A stretch of 37,741 bases of DNA from a virus (lineage: Duplodnaviria; Heunggongvirae; Uroviricota; Caudoviricetes), in IMG/VR virus record IMGVR_UViG_2541047834_000001. One strand, given 5' to 3'. The notes under the pieces were generated by a model. That model saw only the letters and a list, made by a program, of their open reading frames with translations, did not search any database and was not told the DNA's origin. Of this stretch, positions 5,173-33,035 are shown piece by piece. Every line of letters starts with the position of its first letter. Positions within the stretch are counted from its first letter, which is position 1. A program made the position numbers and the translations under genes.

Positions 5173-5187
5173 TTACCGTTGAGGTAA
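5173..5187. promoter_or_regulatory. Operator-like palindrome TTACC-GTTGA-GGTAA (leftward early promoter region)
   Basis: Perfect half-sites; adjacent extra TTACC at 5160. Confidence 0.5.
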
Positions 5188-5234: not shown

Positions 5235-5249
5235 TTACCCTTAAGGTAA
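5235..5249. promoter_or_regulatory. Operator-like palindrome ATTACC-CTTAA-GGTAAT
   Basis: Perfect 17-bp palindrome frame. Confidence 0.5.
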
Positions 5250-5306: not shown

Positions 5307-5891
5307 TTATTGTTTGTTTTTTTCGTTCTGGTTGATGACAAATTCAATGTAACTTTCGATCTTTGCTTTCTCGGTTTCGGGTAACAATGCGTAGCGCGAG
5401 CGGTCATAGTTGATGGTCGCAGGGTCGTGCGGGTGAATCAGTAATTCATAGCCGTGACGCCCGAATGCGGATGCAACATTCTCCAGGGTGGAAATGGAAA
5501 CGCTGACCTCATTGTTTAACAGGCGGCTGATTGTCACCTGGGCGACGCCGGATGCGCGGTGAAGTTTTCCCTGTGTTGAAAGGTCGCGGCTTTCGCTCAT
5601 CCAGCGTTCCAGGTTGTGAGCCGCCAGCTGACCAATGTCGCTTGGGCCGACAGGCTGAAAACCTTCCTGAGAAAGCGAGCGATCGATATCAAGCCAGTTA
5701 CGGGGTTTATTGGCGGCAGCTTCAATTTTTCGCGCAACCTGGTCGCCGATAACCTTCTTGCCAAGAGCCCAGCGGTTTACCAGATTTGCCTGAGTTCCAA
5801 GTTTTTCTGCCATCCGCGTCTGAACACCATTGAATTCACGGTCGATCAAGTCGTTGAGATTTTGCCTGCGGACGTCCTGGATACTTTTCAT
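5307..5891 (-). CDS. Putative immunity repressor with two HTH (XRE-like) domains
   Basis: 194 aa; two helix-turn-helix-like segments (TRMAEKLGTQANLVNRWALGKK and ASGVAQVTISRLLNNEVSVSISTLENVA); divergent from a Cro-like gene across an operator-rich intergenic region. Confidence 0.65.
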   Translation of the reverse strand: MKSIQDVRRQNLNDLIDREFNGVQTRMAEKLGTQANLVNRWALGKKVIGDQVARKIEAAANKPRNWLDIDRSLSQEGFQPVGPSDIGQLAAHNLERWMSESRDLSTQGKLHRASGVAQVTISRLLNNEVSVSISTLENVASAFGRHGYELLIHPHDPATINYDRSRYALLPETEKAKIESYIEFVINQNEKNKQ

Positions 5892-5946: not shown

Positions 5947-5999
5947 TTACCCAACAGGTAAATGCACCCCATAGGTAACTATCCTTGATTTTTGTTACC
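5947..5999. promoter_or_regulatory. Divergent promoter/operator region between repressor and cro-like gene
   Basis: TTACC-CAACA-GGTAA (5947-5961) plus inverted repeat CCCATAGGTAAC / GTTACCTTATGGG (5969-6006). Confidence 0.5.
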
Positions 6000-6331: not shown

Positions 6332-6346
6332 GTACCTCAAAGGTAA
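6332..6346. promoter_or_regulatory. Operator-like palindrome gTACC-TCAAA-GGTAA
   Basis: One mismatch; just after cro terminator. Confidence 0.4.
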
Positions 6347-8277: not shown

Positions 8278-8292
8278 TTACCTAGTGGGTAA
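8278..8292. promoter_or_regulatory. Operator-like palindrome ATTACC-TAGTG-GGTAAT
   Basis: Perfect half-sites; downstream of P-like gene. Confidence 0.5.
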
Positions 8293-8339: not shown

Positions 8340-8354
8340 TTACCTAAGGGGTAA
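8340..8354. promoter_or_regulatory. Operator-like palindrome ATTACC-TAAGG-GGTAA
   Basis: Directly upstream of ATG 8358; preceded by TATGTGGTTTTTAA. Confidence 0.5.
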
Positions 8355-13546: not shown

Positions 13547-15018
13547 CAGATACAGTGTTATCTCCTGAAGAGCAGTTGATCGAGGATATTGCAGGGTTTA
13601 CTCACGATCCGCTTGGTTATGCCCTCTATGCGTTCCCGTGGGGGGAAGAGGGGACTGAACTGGCACATGCCACCGGTCCACGTCAGTGGCAGGCCGATGC
13701 GTTCCGAGAGATACGTGATCACCTGCAGAATCCAGAGACGCGATATCAGCCGCTTATGCTGGCACGCGCTTCTGGTCACGGTATTGGTAAATCCGCATTC
13801 ATCTCAATGCTGATCAACTGGGGCATGTCCACTTGCGAGGATTGTAAGGTCGTGGTGACCGCCAACACCGACAACCAGCTGCGCACCAAGACATGGCCGG
13901 AAATCATCAAATGGTCGAATCTGGCTATCACGAAAGAGTGGTTCACCTGCACCGCCACGGCGATGTACAGCAATGACCCAGGCCACGACAAGCGCTGGCG
14001 AGCTGACGCAATACCGTGGTCTGAGCACAACACAGAGGCGTTCGCCGGGCTGCACAACGAGCGTAAGCGTATCATCGTGGTATTCGATGAAGCATCCAAC
14101 ATTGCCGATCTGGTGTGGGAGGTAGCAGAGGGTGCGCTGACGGACGAAGACACTGAGATTATCTGGGTGGCATTCGGAAACCCTACACGTAACACCGGGC
14201 GTTTCCGCGAATGTTTCCGCAAATATAAACACCGCTGGAAAACTGCGCAGATTGACAGCCGGACGGTGGAAGGCACTAACAAACAGCAGTTGCAGAAATG
14301 GGTTGATGACTACGGGGAAGACAGCGACTTCGTTAAAATCCGTGTGCGCGGCATATTCCCGGATGCATCTGAATTGCAGTTTATCCCTACCGGCCTTACT
14401 GACGAGGCAATGAAACGGGTGGTAACCGCTGCGCAGGTTGCACATGCTCCGGTGATAATCGGCGTTGACCCGGCATACTCCGGCGTTGATGACGCTGTGA
14501 TATACCTGCGGCAGGGGCTGCACAGTAAGGTGCTATGGACTGGTAACAAGACCACCGACGATCTGATTATGGCGAAGCGTATCGCTGACTTTGAAGACCA
14601 GTATCAGGCTGACGCGGTGTTCATCGACTTCGGTTATGGAACCGGTTTGAAGTCAATCGGTGATGGCTGGGGACGTACATGGCAACTTGTTCCGTTCGGC
14701 GGTGCGTCCACTGACCCGCAGATGCTTAACAAGCGTGGGGAGATGTTCAACTCATGTAAGACATGGCTGAGGCTGGGCGGCATGCTGGATGACCAGGAAA
14801 CTGCAGACGACCTGTCGGCGGCAGAGTACAAAGTTCGTGTGGACGGTAAAATCGTTATCGAACCGAAGGAAGATATCAAAGAGCGTCTTGGGCGTTCTCC
14901 TGGTAAAGGCGATGCGCTACTGCTGACGTTTGCTTTCCCGGTCTCGAAACGCATAAATATACCAGGACAGCAAAGCCAGCAGGGAAGGGCCATAACGGAT
15001 TATGACCCTTATGCTTAA
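13543..15018 (+). CDS. Terminase large subunit
   Basis: 491 aa; Walker A-like ARASGHGIGKS, acidic VVFDEASN motif, C-terminal nuclease-like region. Confidence 0.85.
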   Translation: MTDTVLSPEEQLIEDIAGFTHDPLGYALYAFPWGEEGTELAHATGPRQWQADAFREIRDHLQNPETRYQPLMLARASGHGIGKSAFISMLINWGMSTCEDCKVVVTANTDNQLRTKTWPEIIKWSNLAITKEWFTCTATAMYSNDPGHDKRWRADAIPWSEHNTEAFAGLHNERKRIIVVFDEASNIADLVWEVAEGALTDEDTEIIWVAFGNPTRNTGRFRECFRKYKHRWKTAQIDSRTVEGTNKQQLQKWVDDYGEDSDFVKIRVRGIFPDASELQFIPTGLTDEAMKRVVTAAQVAHAPVIIGVDPAYSGVDDAVIYLRQGLHSKVLWTGNKTTDDLIMAKRIADFEDQYQADAVFIDFGYGTGLKSIGDGWGRTWQLVPFGGASTDPQMLNKRGEMFNSCKTWLRLGGMLDDQETADDLSAAEYKVRVDGKIVIEPKEDIKERLGRSPGKGDALLLTFAFPVSKRINIPGQQSQQGRAITDYDPYA

Positions 15019-15108: not shown

Positions 15109-15483
15109 TTATTGCTCGCTTAACTTCTGCTTCAGCAAGTAACCTTCGAGCATCCAGATTTTGTTTACAGCATTCTGCCGGGCAATCTTCCGACCAATTT
15201 CTGCATCAAAGTTTTCCGGGCTTGCACAGGCACTCTCTCCGGTGACGGTGAAGCCATTCTTCAGCACCAGTACGCAGAAAGTGAGAAGGTGCAGAGCATC
15301 AGGGGTGGCTTCGACATAAGGCTCCGGATTATAAATAAGGTCATCTTCTTTAGCCTGGTGGTCACCCTGCGCAGCAGTGAAAAAATGCTCACTGCAAATG
15401 AGGCCTTCAATTTTCTCGGGTGTTACACGCGGTGCCGTTTTGCCTTTCTCAACGATTTCTTTTTCGATTTGCTGGTCGTTCAT
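15109..15483 (-). CDS. Hypothetical phage protein (124 aa); possibly N4 gp49 / Sf6 gp66-like
   Basis: Clean minus-strand ORF co-oriented with the tRNA; family assignment tentative. Confidence 0.55.
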   Translation of the reverse strand: MNDQQIEKEIVEKGKTAPRVTPEKIEGLICSEHFFTAAQGDHQAKEDDLIYNPEPYVEATPDALHLLTFCVLVLKNGFTVTGESACASPENFDAEIGRKIARQNAVNKIWMLEGYLLKQKLSEQ

Positions 15484-15681
15484 AATCTCACCTTAAAAAA
15501 ATGCCCGGCGAACCGGGCGAACTGGAAGCAATGAGTTATGCCTTCCGTGGCTGTACGGGTTTACAGCATGAAGTCATCGCAATGGCGTCCTGCTGTAAAA
15601 AGGGCGGTGATAGTCCTTCAAGGGAAACTATCACCGCCAAGCACCTGGAACTTCTGGCATCACGGTCCTTAGGCGTGATTC

Positions 15682-15758
15682 TGGCGTGGCATGCAGGATT
15701 CGAACCTGCGACCAACCGCTTAGAAGGCGGTTGCTCTGTCCAACTGAGCTAATGCCAC
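15682..15758 (-). tRNA. tRNA-Arg (anticodon UCU, reads AGA)
   Basis: 77-nt cloverleaf on minus strand: acceptor GTGGCAT/ATGCCAC, D-stem GCTC/GAGC, anticodon stem ACCGC/GCGGT with loop CTTCTAA, T-arm GCAGG-TTCGAAT-CCTGC, discriminator G, encoded CCA. Confidence 0.9.
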
Positions 15759-15779
15759 AACGCTGAGAGCACTTAGCCT

Positions 15780-16010
15780 GTTAAGGCGCCACACTTTGTC
15801 GCGGCTCCATAAATGCTCTCATCGTTGTACCCTCGTCTCTTCCGAGGCGTCACACCGAATCGCCAGGATGGTGAGTCCTCGGTCCGACGATATGAACGGG
15901 GCTTGCACATTCCGGCTACCTGGTTCGTTTGCCCGAGCAAGGGAGGGTGCCCCTTAAACGTATCCAGACCGCTATCGGCGCATGTGCCATACGCCGTACT
16001 GCTCAAAATA
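15780..16010 (-). other. GC-rich hairpin-dense noncoding region 5' of the tRNA (candidate structured RNA / leader)
   Basis: About 230 nt with several inverted repeats (e.g. CCGAGG...CCTCGG, GAGAGCA...TGCTCTC); overlapping ORFs on both strands look non-protein-like. Confidence 0.3.
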
Positions 16011-16078
16011 AAAGCTCACTCCACCTGTTCAATTTAACGACAAGCCAGTCAGGTTAATAACCGGAATGAACCCTTTGC

Positions 16079-16093
16079 TTACCTGAAAGGTAA
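16079..16093. promoter_or_regulatory. Operator-like palindrome TTACC-TGAAA-GGTAAT between tRNA cassette and portal operon
   Basis: Perfect half-sites in a divergent intergenic region. Confidence 0.5.
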
Positions 16094-16183
16094 TAATTTG
16101 TGCGTTAAATGTCAACTATCTACGATAAATAAATCATATGTGGTTAAATTGGTAATAATTTAATTGCGTACGGAGTCATTGAT

Positions 16184-16390
16184 ATGTGCATGGGGAGCTC
16201 ACCATCAGTGCCTGCAACACCAGAAGTTCAGGTAGCACCACAGGAGCAGGATGCCGCCGTTGTTGATGCCCGCGACGAAGAAACACGTCGCCGTCGCGCT
16301 GCTGCTGGTCGTAGTTCTACGCTGCTTACCGGTTCTCAGGGCGACACATCAACCGCTAATACCAGCGGTAAAACGCTGCTTGGTCAGTAA
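16184..16390 (+). CDS. Hypothetical small protein (68 aa) preceding portal
   Basis: ATG preceded by GGAGTCATTGA, the same RBS context as the portal gene. Confidence 0.45.
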   Translation: MCMGSSPSVPATPEVQVAPQEQDAAVVDARDEETRRRRAAAGRSSTLLTGSQGDTSTANTSGKTLLGQ

Positions 16391-16404: not shown

Positions 16405-18084
16405 ATGGCGGAAACAACTAAAGAGCGATTGAACAAACAGTTCGCACAACTTGAAAGCGAGCGTCAGTCGTTCGAGCCGCACTGGCGCGAGTTGAGTGAT
16501 TACATCAACCCGCGTGGTTCCCGCTTTCTGACTTCTGAGGTCAACCGTAACGATCGACGGAATACACGCATTATTGATTCGACCGGGACTATGGCGGCGC
16601 GCACTCTCGCCAGCGGCATGATGTCAGGCATCACAAGCCCCGCGCGTCCGTGGTTTCGCCTGGCTACGCCAGATCCTGAAATGATGGATTATGGCCCTGT
16701 TAAGTTGTGGCTTGAGGCGGTGCAGAACCGCATGAACGATATGTTCAATAAGTCGAATCTCTATCAGTCGCTGCCGCAGTTATACGGAAGCCTCGGCACA
16801 TACAGCACTGGTGCAATGGCGGTGCTGGAGGATGACGAGGACATCATTCGCACAATGCCATTCCCTATAGGCAGTTACTACCTGGCTAACTCACCTCGTG
16901 GCAGTGTGGACACCTGTTTTCGCAAGTTCTCTATGACTGTTCGTCAGCTTGTTCAGGAGTTCGGGCTAAATAACGTCAGCGAATCCGTAAAAAGCATGTG
17001 GGAAAGCGGCACCTACGAGAAGTGGATTGAAGTGATGCATTCGGTTTACCCGAACATTGACCGCGATACATCGAAGCTGGATAGCAAGAACAAGCCATTC
17101 AAATCGGTTTATTACGAGGTTGGTGGCGATAACGACAAGTTGTTGCGTGAGTCCGGATTCGATGAGTTTCCAATTATGGCTCCGCGCTGGGAAGTTAACG
17201 GCGAAGATGTTTATGGATCATCATGCCCTGGTATGCTGGCGCTTGGACCTGTTAAGGCATTGCAGCTTCTCCAGAAGCGCAAGTCGCAGTTGATTGATAA
17301 AGCCACCAATCCGCCGATGGTTGCTCCGACTTCCCTCAAGAATCAGCGCGCCTCCCTTCTTCCTGGCGACATCACGTATATCGATCAGATTACTGGTCAG
17401 GATGGTTTCAGGCCTGCTTATCTGGTTAACCCCAGTACAGCAGATCTGGTAGCAGACATTCAGGACACCCGCCAAATCATTAACAGCGCCTACTTTGTCG
17501 ATCTGTTCATGATGTTGCAGAACATCAATACCCGCTCGATGCCTGTTGAAGCAGTGATCGAAATGAAAGAAGAAAAGCTTCTGATGTTGGGGCCAGTTCT
17601 GGAGCGTCTGAACGACGAATGTCTTAATCCTCTCATTGACCGCACTTTCTCGATGATGGTGCGTAAAAACATGTTGCCGCCACCGCCTGACGCGATGGAA
17701 GGCATGCCCCTGAAGGTCGAATACATTTCCGTCATGGCTCAGGCGCAGAAGTCTATCGGCCTGTCCAGTCTGGCGTCCACGGTTAACTTCATTGGTCAAC
17801 TTGCGCAAGCGAAACCAGAAGCTCTCGACAAACTCAACGTTGATCAGGCGATCGATGCATTCGCTGATATGTCCGGAGTGTCTCCAACCGTCATTGTTCC
17901 GCAGGAACAGGTTGAGCAGGCTCGCCAGCAACGGGCACAGCAACAACAGCAGCAACAAATGATGGCGATGGGGATGGCGGCGGCACAGGGTGCCAAGACG
18001 CTAAGCGAAGCTAAAACTTCGGAGCCGAGTGTTTTGTCAGCTATGGCGAATGCAGTTAGTGGTCAGGGTGGGCAATCACAATGA
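16405..18084 (+). CDS. Portal (head-tail connector) protein, T7 gp8-like
   Basis: 559 aa; Gln/Ala/Met-rich C-terminus (RQQRAQQQQQQQMMAMGMAAAQGA) like T7-type portals; downstream of terminase. Confidence 0.8.
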   Translation: MAETTKERLNKQFAQLESERQSFEPHWRELSDYINPRGSRFLTSEVNRNDRRNTRIIDSTGTMAARTLASGMMSGITSPARPWFRLATPDPEMMDYGPVKLWLEAVQNRMNDMFNKSNLYQSLPQLYGSLGTYSTGAMAVLEDDEDIIRTMPFPIGSYYLANSPRGSVDTCFRKFSMTVRQLVQEFGLNNVSESVKSMWESGTYEKWIEVMHSVYPNIDRDTSKLDSKNKPFKSVYYEVGGDNDKLLRESGFDEFPIMAPRWEVNGEDVYGSSCPGMLALGPVKALQLLQKRKSQLIDKATNPPMVAPTSLKNQRASLLPGDITYIDQITGQDGFRPAYLVNPSTADLVADIQDTRQIINSAYFVDLFMMLQNINTRSMPVEAVIEMKEEKLLMLGPVLERLNDECLNPLIDRTFSMMVRKNMLPPPPDAMEGMPLKVEYISVMAQAQKSIGLSSLASTVNFIGQLAQAKPEALDKLNVDQAIDAFADMSGVSPTVIVPQEQVEQARQQRAQQQQQQQMMAMGMAAAQGAKTLSEAKTSEPSVLSAMANAVSGQGGQSQ

Positions 18085-33020: not shown

Positions 33021-33035
33021 TTACCCGAAAGGTAA
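33021..33035. promoter_or_regulatory. Operator-like palindrome ATTACC-CGAAA-GGTAAT between moron gene and tail fibre gene
   Basis: Perfect half-sites; followed at 33067 by TATGTGGTTTTTAA. Confidence 0.5.

Follow-up and report, generated by a model that had tools for sequence, protein, structure and literature searches.

What is encoded in the GC-rich interval that separates a tRNA gene from an upstream promoter-like region in this phage genome? The window, by which we mean the whole stretch of 37,741 nucleotides (nt) analysed here (IMG/VR record IMGVR_UViG_2541047834_000001), belongs to a phiV10/TL-2011b-like (Uetakevirus-type) phage or prophage, as judged by 96-97% identity across 15500-16200 in a DNA search, and an identical copy of 15830-16000 is present in an E. 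coli chromosome. The original prediction had portrayed positions 15780-16010 as a GC-rich, hairpin-dense, noncoding leader of the tRNA transcript, possibly a structured RNA on the minus strand. Comparative sequence analysis now shows that the minus strand of 15999-15759 codes for an RNA of a sequence-conserved family not described before; the structured element spans 15759-15999 on the minus strand, the interval named originally being slightly narrower on the 3' side. What had been missed is that the element represents a widespread pseudoknotted family, that the usual home of this family is the repressor-controlled early-left (pL) leader, and that the element forms the first module of a ~600-nt noncoding array.

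In line with the predicted compositional bias, GC content reaches 0.59 in 15800-15999, whereas the promoter region (16000-16199) has 0.36 and the flanking sequence 0.46-0.55. Folding compared with shuffles gave z = -2.33 for the minus and z = -2.00 for the plus strand, values that are modest on their own; it is the comparative evidence, rather than the fold z-scores, that we regard as the decisive support for a structured RNA. More than 140 homologous loci were collected via an exact match to a 19-mer described below, and 40 representatives, none more than 95% identical to another, were aligned (alignment A3); the structure was derived by hand and then tested. Five helices, one of them a pseudoknot, are supported in the 40 copies, with 97.8% of 1039 cells paired and compensatory change in 11 of the 26 pairs. 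Doubly changed cells numbered 81, as opposed to 21.7 ± 3.7 in column shuffles, and none of 500 shuffles reached the observed value. As controls, sliding the partner columns by 1-3 left only 28-55% of cells paired, and shifting the P1 string by one column reduced pairing to 14.6%. A covariance model built from A3 scored 150.3 bits (E = 9e-43) at 15999-15825 over its full length, and found exactly one full-length copy in each searched locus that has the element. G·U pairs account for ~14% of paired cells; read from the opposite strand they would turn into A·C mismatches, which identifies the minus strand of the window as the functional one. Flanking tRNAs lie on the strand of the element in 46 of 46 cases. 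The proposal of a structured minus-strand RNA is thus borne out by the compensatory changes and the G·U bias in the 40 homologues. Of the two computational checks that had been proposed for it, the Rfam covariance search of the stretch gave no match, whereas the comparative test for compensatory changes turned out strongly positive. The parts of the core are as follows.

15825-15999, minus strand: core (module A), ~175 nt, with P1, P2, the variable P3, P4 with its pseudoknot, and P5.
15976-15996, minus strand: hairpin P1, CGGCGUAUG-GCA-CAUGCGCCG; pair 8:20 is G-C in 23 and A-U in 15 of the 40 copies.
Beginning at 15968, minus strand: helix P2, closing off a variable insert; 27 copies have C-G and 13 have U-A at pair 34:88.
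15902-15920, minus strand: invariant 19-mer GGUAGCCGGAAUGUGCAAG (RNA strand) in the junction after P2, identical in 40/40 aligned representatives.
15865-15879, minus strand: hairpin P4, AGGA-CUCACCA-UCCU; three of four pairs covary.
15853-15856, minus strand: GGUG, which forms an H-type pseudoknot with CACC of the P4 loop; 100% paired.
15831-15847, minus strand: hairpin P5, CCUCG-GAAGAGA-CGAGG; compensatory changes in three of five pairs.

Across copies, the family consensus of P4 reads NNNA-UUCACCA-UNNN, the pseudoknot pair 146:166 switches from C-G to A-U in five sequences, and the stem of P5 occurs as CCUCG/CGAGG, CCUGG/CCAGG or GCCGG/CCGGC. The inverted repeat CCGAGG/CCTCGG noted earlier is present (15842-15847 with 15877-15882) but is not the pairing that evolution has kept: CCUCG (15847-15843) instead pairs with CGAGG (15835-15831) to form P5 with its GAAGAGA loop, where the covarying pairs are found. 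RNAalifold adds an invariant closing helix (A3 columns 107-109 with 155-157) and a six-pair long-range helix (columns 13-18 with 99-104) between GCACAU of the P1 loop and AUGUGC inside the 19-mer (15911-15906). The latter would compete with the top of P1 and represents a possible second pseudoknot in this predicted fold; since both of its strands are invariant, covariation cannot judge it. P3 formed no consistently stable hairpin when sequences were folded singly, and for this reason was left unstructured.

The noncoding nature of the element, as originally predicted, is likewise in line with the data. Open reading frames (ORFs) of 77, 74, 53 and 42 amino acids overlap the region, the longest at 15773-16006 on the minus strand, and none of them has a Pfam match. 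Among the frames anchored on the invariant motif none is stop-free in more than 14 of the 40 homologues, and the lengths of the two variable segments spread evenly over the residues modulo 3. Rfam 15 gave no family match in 15759-15999 even at E up to 10 (the window was scanned at the gathering threshold and 15450-16250 at E up to 10) and nothing over the element in 15 other loci. Scans of the window and related loci returned only tRNAs, the true DicF in the Qin prophage, an int-alpA RNA in Enterobacter phage Tyrion, and weak sub-threshold matches; the int-alpA match (locus L010, 1450-1514, minus strand) scores 44 bits at a gathering threshold of 35.8 and lies between a Gp49-like gene and the next gene. 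The option of a degenerate tRNA-like element had to be abandoned, as ARAGORN and the Rfam tRNA model detect only the real tRNA at 15682-15758 and the core helices form no cloverleaf. A CsrA sponge was rejected as well: GGA, counted by eye, occurs ~11 times per 500 nt of the array where ~8 would be expected, and is not conserved in P3. Presumed resemblances to RNase P RNA (GGUAAGAGC) and signal recognition particle RNA, which no test supports, were set aside.

How far does this family reach? Unrelated SfV-like lambdoid phages (mEp460, cdtI, 2H10, Stx2c and Stx2a phages) contain a segment ~83% identical to 15759-15997, and the inner ~160 nt are 80-87% identical to a segment of P1, P7, D6, SJ46 and RCS47; weaker DNA matches came from phages of Salmonella, Klebsiella and Enterobacter and from one labelled as a Stenotrophomonas phage. 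The element thus occurs in phiV10-like, SfV-like lambdoid and Stx2 phages as well as in P1/P7/D6. Among complete E. coli genomes, 1837 of 5426 carry it in up to four copies each (1916 placements on chromosomes, 554 on plasmids), and none of the matches listed has an RNA feature annotated over it. An exact search for the 19-mer in species-representative genomes returned 24 stretches, almost all from Enterobacteriaceae, plus Erwinia dacicola, with at least one match (L022) being due to chance; exact matches also occur in at least 120 IMG/VR contigs. The range found so far is confined to Enterobacteriaceae and Erwinia. With both an nhmmer profile and the covariance model, the core is absent from CPS-53 of E. 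coli K-12, despite shared yfdP-yfdT genes, and from the dicF region of K-12 Qin; K-12 transcriptome data are therefore not usable for the element. No description of it was found in the literature, including a text search for the invariant 19-mer. The window also carries a trace of exchange: its P3 segment and P4 stem (15865-15901) are identical to those of the P1-like phage D6 (L005) and wholly unlike those of L008, otherwise the closest phiV10-like relative, which points to recombination inside the RNA gene between unrelated phages.

From which promoter might such an RNA be transcribed? The presence of a promoter region upstream, another element of the original prediction, finds support in a promoter-like site read from the sequence.

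16087-16115, minus strand: candidate sigma-70 promoter with -35 TTGACA (16115-16110), a 17-nt spacer and -10 TACCTT (16092-16087).
16079-16093: perfect palindrome TTACCTGAAAGGTAA, overlapping the -10 element.
16010-16075, minus strand: weak 5' leader hairpin between promoter and core, from a minimum-free-energy fold only.

A consensus promoter scan missed this site because its -10 element is weak. The arrangement TTGACA-17-TACCTT recurs 13-97 nt upstream of P1 in many homologous loci, and promoter and palindrome occur together 13-36 nt upstream of P1 in several others. In the window, the palindrome TTACCTNNNAGGTAA has nine copies at up to one mismatch where none would be expected (151-165, 5173-5187, 5235-5249, 5947-5961, 6332-6346, 8278-8292, 8340-8354, 16079-16093 and 33021-33035). 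Several of these flank a helix-turn-helix (HTH) repressor-like ORF (5307-5891, minus strand), and this, together with their number, suggests that the palindromes are probably the operator set of the phage repressor. As to the leader hairpin, relatives have GGAGUGCGCUUCCAGGUGUG at its position, and its 3' arm (GGAGUGAGCUUUU) is similar to the corresponding arm of the B-type hairpins described below.

Other loci reveal the same arrangement more clearly. Of 119 loci in which an upstream ORF could be called, 77 have a same-strand cI-type HTH repressor there, its gene ending ~90-160 nt before the element. In the loci that were read, the repressor stop codon is followed by an intrinsic terminator, a promoter (TTGACA-type in L013, L017, L020 and L097; operator-like repeats are visible in L007 and L073) and then, ~10-55 nt further on, by the element. 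This order makes the element the first thing transcribed from pL, and an RNA made from a repressor-controlled early promoter is the unifying theme of the contexts. The commonest first downstream proteins are YfdP-like, DUF2303 (YfdQ) and several of no assigned function; they are not N-like. HK022 and mEp390 are both members of the subfamily Hendrixvirinae, and the place taken by putL in HK022 is occupied by the element in mEp390. The lambdoid phage LLS, whose cI and Cro are closest to those of mEp460_4F5 according to Smith, Casjens and colleagues, has been reported to be devoid of an N gene and is suspected of RNA-mediated antitermination (PMC12315714). A neighbouring tRNA is dispensable, ~110 of 156 loci having none nearby. 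Where tRNAs do occur, phiV10-like phages have tRNA-Arg directly 3' of the element, and P1-like phage-plasmids have a CAU-anticodon tRNA (annotated trnI in phage P1) directly 5' and ban 3' of it, inside the C1-controlled ban operon.

Which RNA does the core belong to, once transcribed? In the window it opens an untranslated array that starts with promoter and operator and continues up to the first protein-coding gene of the transcription unit.

15759-15827, minus strand: module B, a long hairpin (CAACGAUGAGAGCA...UGCUCUCAGCGUUG; tip variable) immediately following the core on the 3' side, whose final G doubles as the first nucleotide of the tRNA.
15682-15758, minus strand: tRNA-Arg(UCU) (ARAGORN; Rfam 73.3 bits).
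15659-15679, minus strand: module D, hairpin AUCACG-CCUAAGGAC-CGUGAU, conserved across several contexts.
15597-15640, minus strand: module E, DicF-like hairpin plus U-tract (UUGGCGGUGAUAG...CUAUCACCGCCCUUUUU), terminator-like in the terminator scan.
15564-15595, minus strand: module F, hairpin CAGCAGGACGCCAUUGCGAUGACUUCAUGCUG, from folding; conserved in aligned contexts.
15495-15546, minus strand: module G, GGAAG...CUUCC stem and strong intrinsic terminator GCCCGGUUCGCCGGGC-AUUUUUUU (terminator scan).
15109-15483, minus strand: Gp49/Sf6 gp66-family gene (Pfam PF13876, E = 2.4e-34), the first protein-coding gene of the unit.
Ending at 15018: large terminase gene.
Starting at 16405, plus strand: portal gene.

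The element is therefore the 5' leader of tRNA-Arg in the window, much as had been anticipated, and the repeat GAGAGCA/TGCTCTC (15765-15820) recognized at the time is real, being the base of the conserved hairpin B. Among the basal pairs of this hairpin 7 of 14 show compensatory changes and 92.9% of cells are paired, with a mild bias towards pairing because its 5' register was picked among four offsets to maximise pairing. As hairpin B ends exactly at G1 of the tRNA, RNase P cleavage would release it. The order core, B, tRNA or tRNA-like, D (AUCACG-CCUUAGGAC-CGUGAU), DicF-like hairpin, F and G is conserved downstream. At the position of the real tRNA of the window, relatives have a tRNA-like domain (GUGGUG...CCACCAC-AAC), and some keep T-arm-like remnants; downstream of the element in L023 and L040/L006, either this domain or the tip of hairpin B contains T-arm-like sequences (GCUGGUUCGACUCCAGC and GCUGGUUCAAUUCCAGAC), which suggests, at the level of sequence, that tRNA-like domains and B tips derive from tRNAs. 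Module E takes the array position of the true dicF in Qin, although its match to the Rfam DicF family (RF00039) is weak (16.9 bits, E = 0.71; gathering threshold 48) compared with 76.7 bits for true Qin dicF. Module G recurs in many unrelated contexts, and its U-tract (GCCCGGUUCGCCGGGC-A-U7) runs into the Shine-Dalgarno-ATG region (15494-15481) of the Gp49-family gene; a weak RyhB-like Rfam match of G (18.1 bits) is probably due to the terminator alone.

The modules can be separated from each other, since in K-12 Qin a B-type hairpin and a tRNA-like domain stand directly upstream of authentic dicF with the core being absent. This Qin segment (L160 ~2180-2370) comprises an unannotated B-type hairpin and a ~110-nt tRNA-like domain (GUGG...CCGCGAAAUGGCGCGGCGGUAAGUAUGGCGGGG...), and the same pair is seen in SfV-like prophages, e.g. 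L007 (~3995-3815, minus strand); possibly, hairpin and tRNA-like domain are the processing scaffold of the DicF precursor. In L025 and L037, a unit of P5-like hairpin, B and tRNA-like domain is duplicated. The variant copies L041, L042, L065, L066, L074 and L145 do without P5; in them GGUGACAGCCCAGACGAUAUCUGAGUGGCU comes after the pseudoknot region, and behind it stand, in this order, a hairpin resembling P5, one of the B type and a DicF-like module. The leader of the dicF-type small RNA array thus presents itself as a mosaic of conserved RNA modules that annotation pipelines miss.

What might the core do at this place? The mechanism we tentatively put first, short of an even chance, is that of a cis-acting RNA that makes RNA polymerase resistant to termination, by its position akin to HK022 put. 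HK022 put RNA and the boxA leaders of rrn operons are known to render polymerase termination-resistant, and a position at the early promoter of phages lacking N, combined with an untranslated array and downstream terminators, is the architecture of such processive antitermination systems. In the window, antitermination would be needed because two terminators precede the Gp49-family gene, the second touching its ribosome-binding site and standing in the sole path to it. More generally, terminator-like hairpins occur on the same strand at 1.27 per kb in the 600 nt downstream of the element compared with 0.31 per kb elsewhere, and are found in 65 of 113 contexts. In three of 144 contexts (L060, L073 and L116), a hairpin and a consensus boxA (UGCUCUUUAACAA or AGCUCUUUAAUAA) follow ~15-25 nt after P5, which marks these leaders as antitermination sites; no consensus boxA is present in the element or flanks of the window. 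The core would fold during transcription, directly after the repressor-controlled early promoter, and would act in cis on its own polymerase, alone or together with Nus factors. Polymerase would thereby turn resistant to Rho on the long untranslated RNA and to the intrinsic terminators of the array, and so reach the downstream genes; RNase P cleavage at G1 of the tRNA could then free core and B as a discrete RNA of ~240-330 nt.

A number of observations weigh against antitermination by the core, a mechanism we infer from position and analogy. The element is not always promoter-proximal: P1-like phages have it within an operon, behind tciABC-trnI, and Klebsiella phage SopranoGao has it behind the lysis genes. 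No terminator-like hairpin is found within 600 nt in 48 of 113 contexts, and enrichment of terminators is to be expected in any noncoding leader. The boxA motifs beside three copies could mean that Nus/boxA, and not the core RNA, brings about antitermination in these leaders. With ~175 nt, five helices and a pseudoknot, the element is 2.5 times longer than put, which has ~70 nt and two stem-loops, and its profile gave no nhmmer hit at E up to 100 and no covariance-model hit at E up to 10 in HK022 and HK639. Finally, an RNA that binds a ligand or a protein would account just as well for the invariant 19-mer and the two possible pseudoknots.

The main rival, which we deem possible though on the unlikely side, is that the core acts in trans as a stable noncoding RNA. 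RNase P, acting at the tRNA or the domain resembling one, and RNase III or E, acting at B-type hairpins, would excise the core, with or without B, from the early transcript. The accumulating RNA would then bind some conserved macromolecule of the host (RNA polymerase, a factor of the ribosome or of RNA decay, or a defence protein, for instance) and so favour lytic growth. The exact abutment of hairpin B on G1 of the tRNA would suit such processing, as would the same-strand tRNAs that flank the element on either side in two phage lineages and the GUGGUG...CCACCAC domain that replaces the tRNA in relatives. DicF is reportedly processed by RNases III and E, and the B, tRNA-like and DicF array of Qin is a known processed precursor. 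Release in trans would also explain the copies in phage P1 and SopranoGao that are remote from a promoter; the element has the mobility of a self-contained cassette, turning up in unrelated phages and at different positions, and the invariance of the 19-mer across genera suggests a conserved binding partner. However, most contexts offer neither a terminator of their own nor a conserved 3' end directly after the core, and a trans-acting RNA does not require the strong bias towards the first place after the early promoter.

A riboswitch-like sensor, whose core would bind a metabolite or ion and switch pairings to control terminator read-through, thereby tying early-left expression to host physiology, strikes us as improbable. 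The 5' leader position upstream of terminators and a compact pseudoknotted fold with many invariant unpaired nucleotides would be compatible with it, and mutually exclusive pairings can be drawn (the P1 apex versus GCACAU/AUGUGC; by eye, GGUG with CACC of either the P4 loop or the start of P5). Yet these alternative pairings are invariant and hence lie beyond covariation evidence, no Rfam riboswitch matches, and the downstream genes are functionally incoherent; with the nearest terminator ~200-300 nt away and other modules in between, no expression platform overlaps the aptamer. There is a similarly slim chance that the element is passive, its structure at the 5' end serving only to keep the transcript stable or to direct RNases to the tRNA and small RNA array, without any specific partner. 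Its place at the 5' end of processed arrays and next to tRNAs would be in keeping with that role, but a stabiliser needs no invariant 19-mer, no pseudoknot and no ~80% identity across phage families and host genera.

We find it very improbable that the whole ~500-770 nt array is one large ornate RNA of the GOLLD/ROOL kind, with the tRNA in a linker and the region considered here as its 5' domain. Several unrelated contexts keep the module order A-G around a central tRNA or tRNA-like domain, and GOLLD and ROOL occur near tRNAs, with a tRNA sometimes residing in the GOLLD linker (bioRxiv 10.1101/2024.12.08.627333). Against this, the modules behave as independent units: phage P1 carries only the core; Qin lacks the core but has B, the tRNA-like domain and DicF; L025 and L037 hold some modules twice; one module is a probable homologue of a known small RNA; and no long-range pairing between modules was found. 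That the region encodes a small protein (the 77-amino-acid or plus-strand ORFs) or is a DNA-level site (operator, origin, packaging) is effectively excluded: ORFs do exist over it and some phage records annotate hypothetical proteins over homologues, but no frame is kept open in more than 14 of the 40 homologues, indels are not multiples of three and Pfam is silent, while a DNA site is at odds with compensatory helix substitutions and with the frequent G·U pairs, which a DNA cruciform or the opposite strand would turn into A·C.

Taking the two best-surviving mechanisms together, we lean, if only slightly, towards placing the core in a new class of autonomous regulatory RNAs from temperate phages of enterobacteria, either an RNA-only polymerase modifier of a structure unrelated to put, which would direct early-left transcription in P1 and about a third of E. 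coli genomes, or a pseudoknotted trans RNA released by tRNA punctuation that binds a ligand, host or defence factor. By analogy, the element files as a phage early-leader regulatory RNA, yet may prove more unusual. If correct, this would mean that P1, P7, D6, Stx2a/Stx2c-converting, SfV-like and phiV10-like phages start their early lytic transcripts with an unannotated folded RNA and, with such prophages in roughly a third of complete E. coli genomes, that the best-studied phage-host system harbours an unrecognised player. It would fill a known gap, namely how lambdoid phages devoid of N get RNA polymerase through their early operons, and would provide either a second, structurally independent case in which RNA controls elongation or a new phage RNA acting in trans. 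It would also bear on the induction of Shiga-toxin phages, because the element sits at pL of Stx2 prophages.

How does the element compare with known systems? One close parallel is put (putL/putR of HK022 and the putL-like site of HK639), a structured phage RNA just after pL of lambdoid phages lacking N; in lambdoid contexts the element is placed alike, and both lie upstream of terminators on the strand of the operon. Put suppresses pausing and termination in cis without protein factors via the zinc-binding domain of the β' subunit. The window itself is that of a podovirus, so that the lambdoid pL position of put does not literally apply to it, and the promoter there carries the probable operator. 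Unlike put, with its putL and putR, the element occurs once per phage and not in the pR operon, and it is also found outside lambdoid pL leaders, in phage P1 and Uetakevirus. Short resemblances can be seen in a 5' hairpin (CGGCG...CAUGCGUCG) and in AAUG.UGC. Membership in the put family, whose RNA consists of ~70 nt with two stem-loops and a triple helix (PMC9378689), was rejected, as only short local similarities are shared and the architecture differs. As an aside, the HK639 record (L158, 37910-37969) annotates an 'M3-like RNA' downstream of cII.

Like rrn leaders and lambda nut, the element stands at the start of a transcript, early or long and untranslated, that needs to escape from Rho and terminators, and by eye the 3' strands of B-type hairpins hold a boxA-like UGCUCUU. 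These boxA-like strings of hairpin B are base-paired, however, and covary for pairing rather than sequence; furthermore, the element is far larger and folded, and consensus boxA is near only the three contexts named above. A Nus-dependent nut/boxA site was rejected for the window, the element there having no consensus boxA. GOLLD and ROOL, in turn, are phage or prophage RNAs near tRNAs, with a tRNA sometimes in the GOLLD linker, and GOLLD often exceeds 800 nt (bioRxiv 10.1101/2024.12.08.627333). The element resembles them in being phage- or prophage-borne and pseudoknotted, and in lying next to tRNAs, which those RNAs may also enclose. It differs in its length of 175 nt, in being modular instead of a single domain, in having no Rfam match, and in its range of Enterobacteriaceae and Erwinia so far. 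ROOL, for comparison, measures ~580 nt.

The dicB operon of Qin shows the same layout: a repressor, an early promoter, a long leader with B-type hairpin, tRNA-like domain and a DicF or DicF-like small RNA with terminator, and then early genes. The two arrangements part company where Qin has the small ORFs ydfA, ydfB and ydfC and the family described here has the core.

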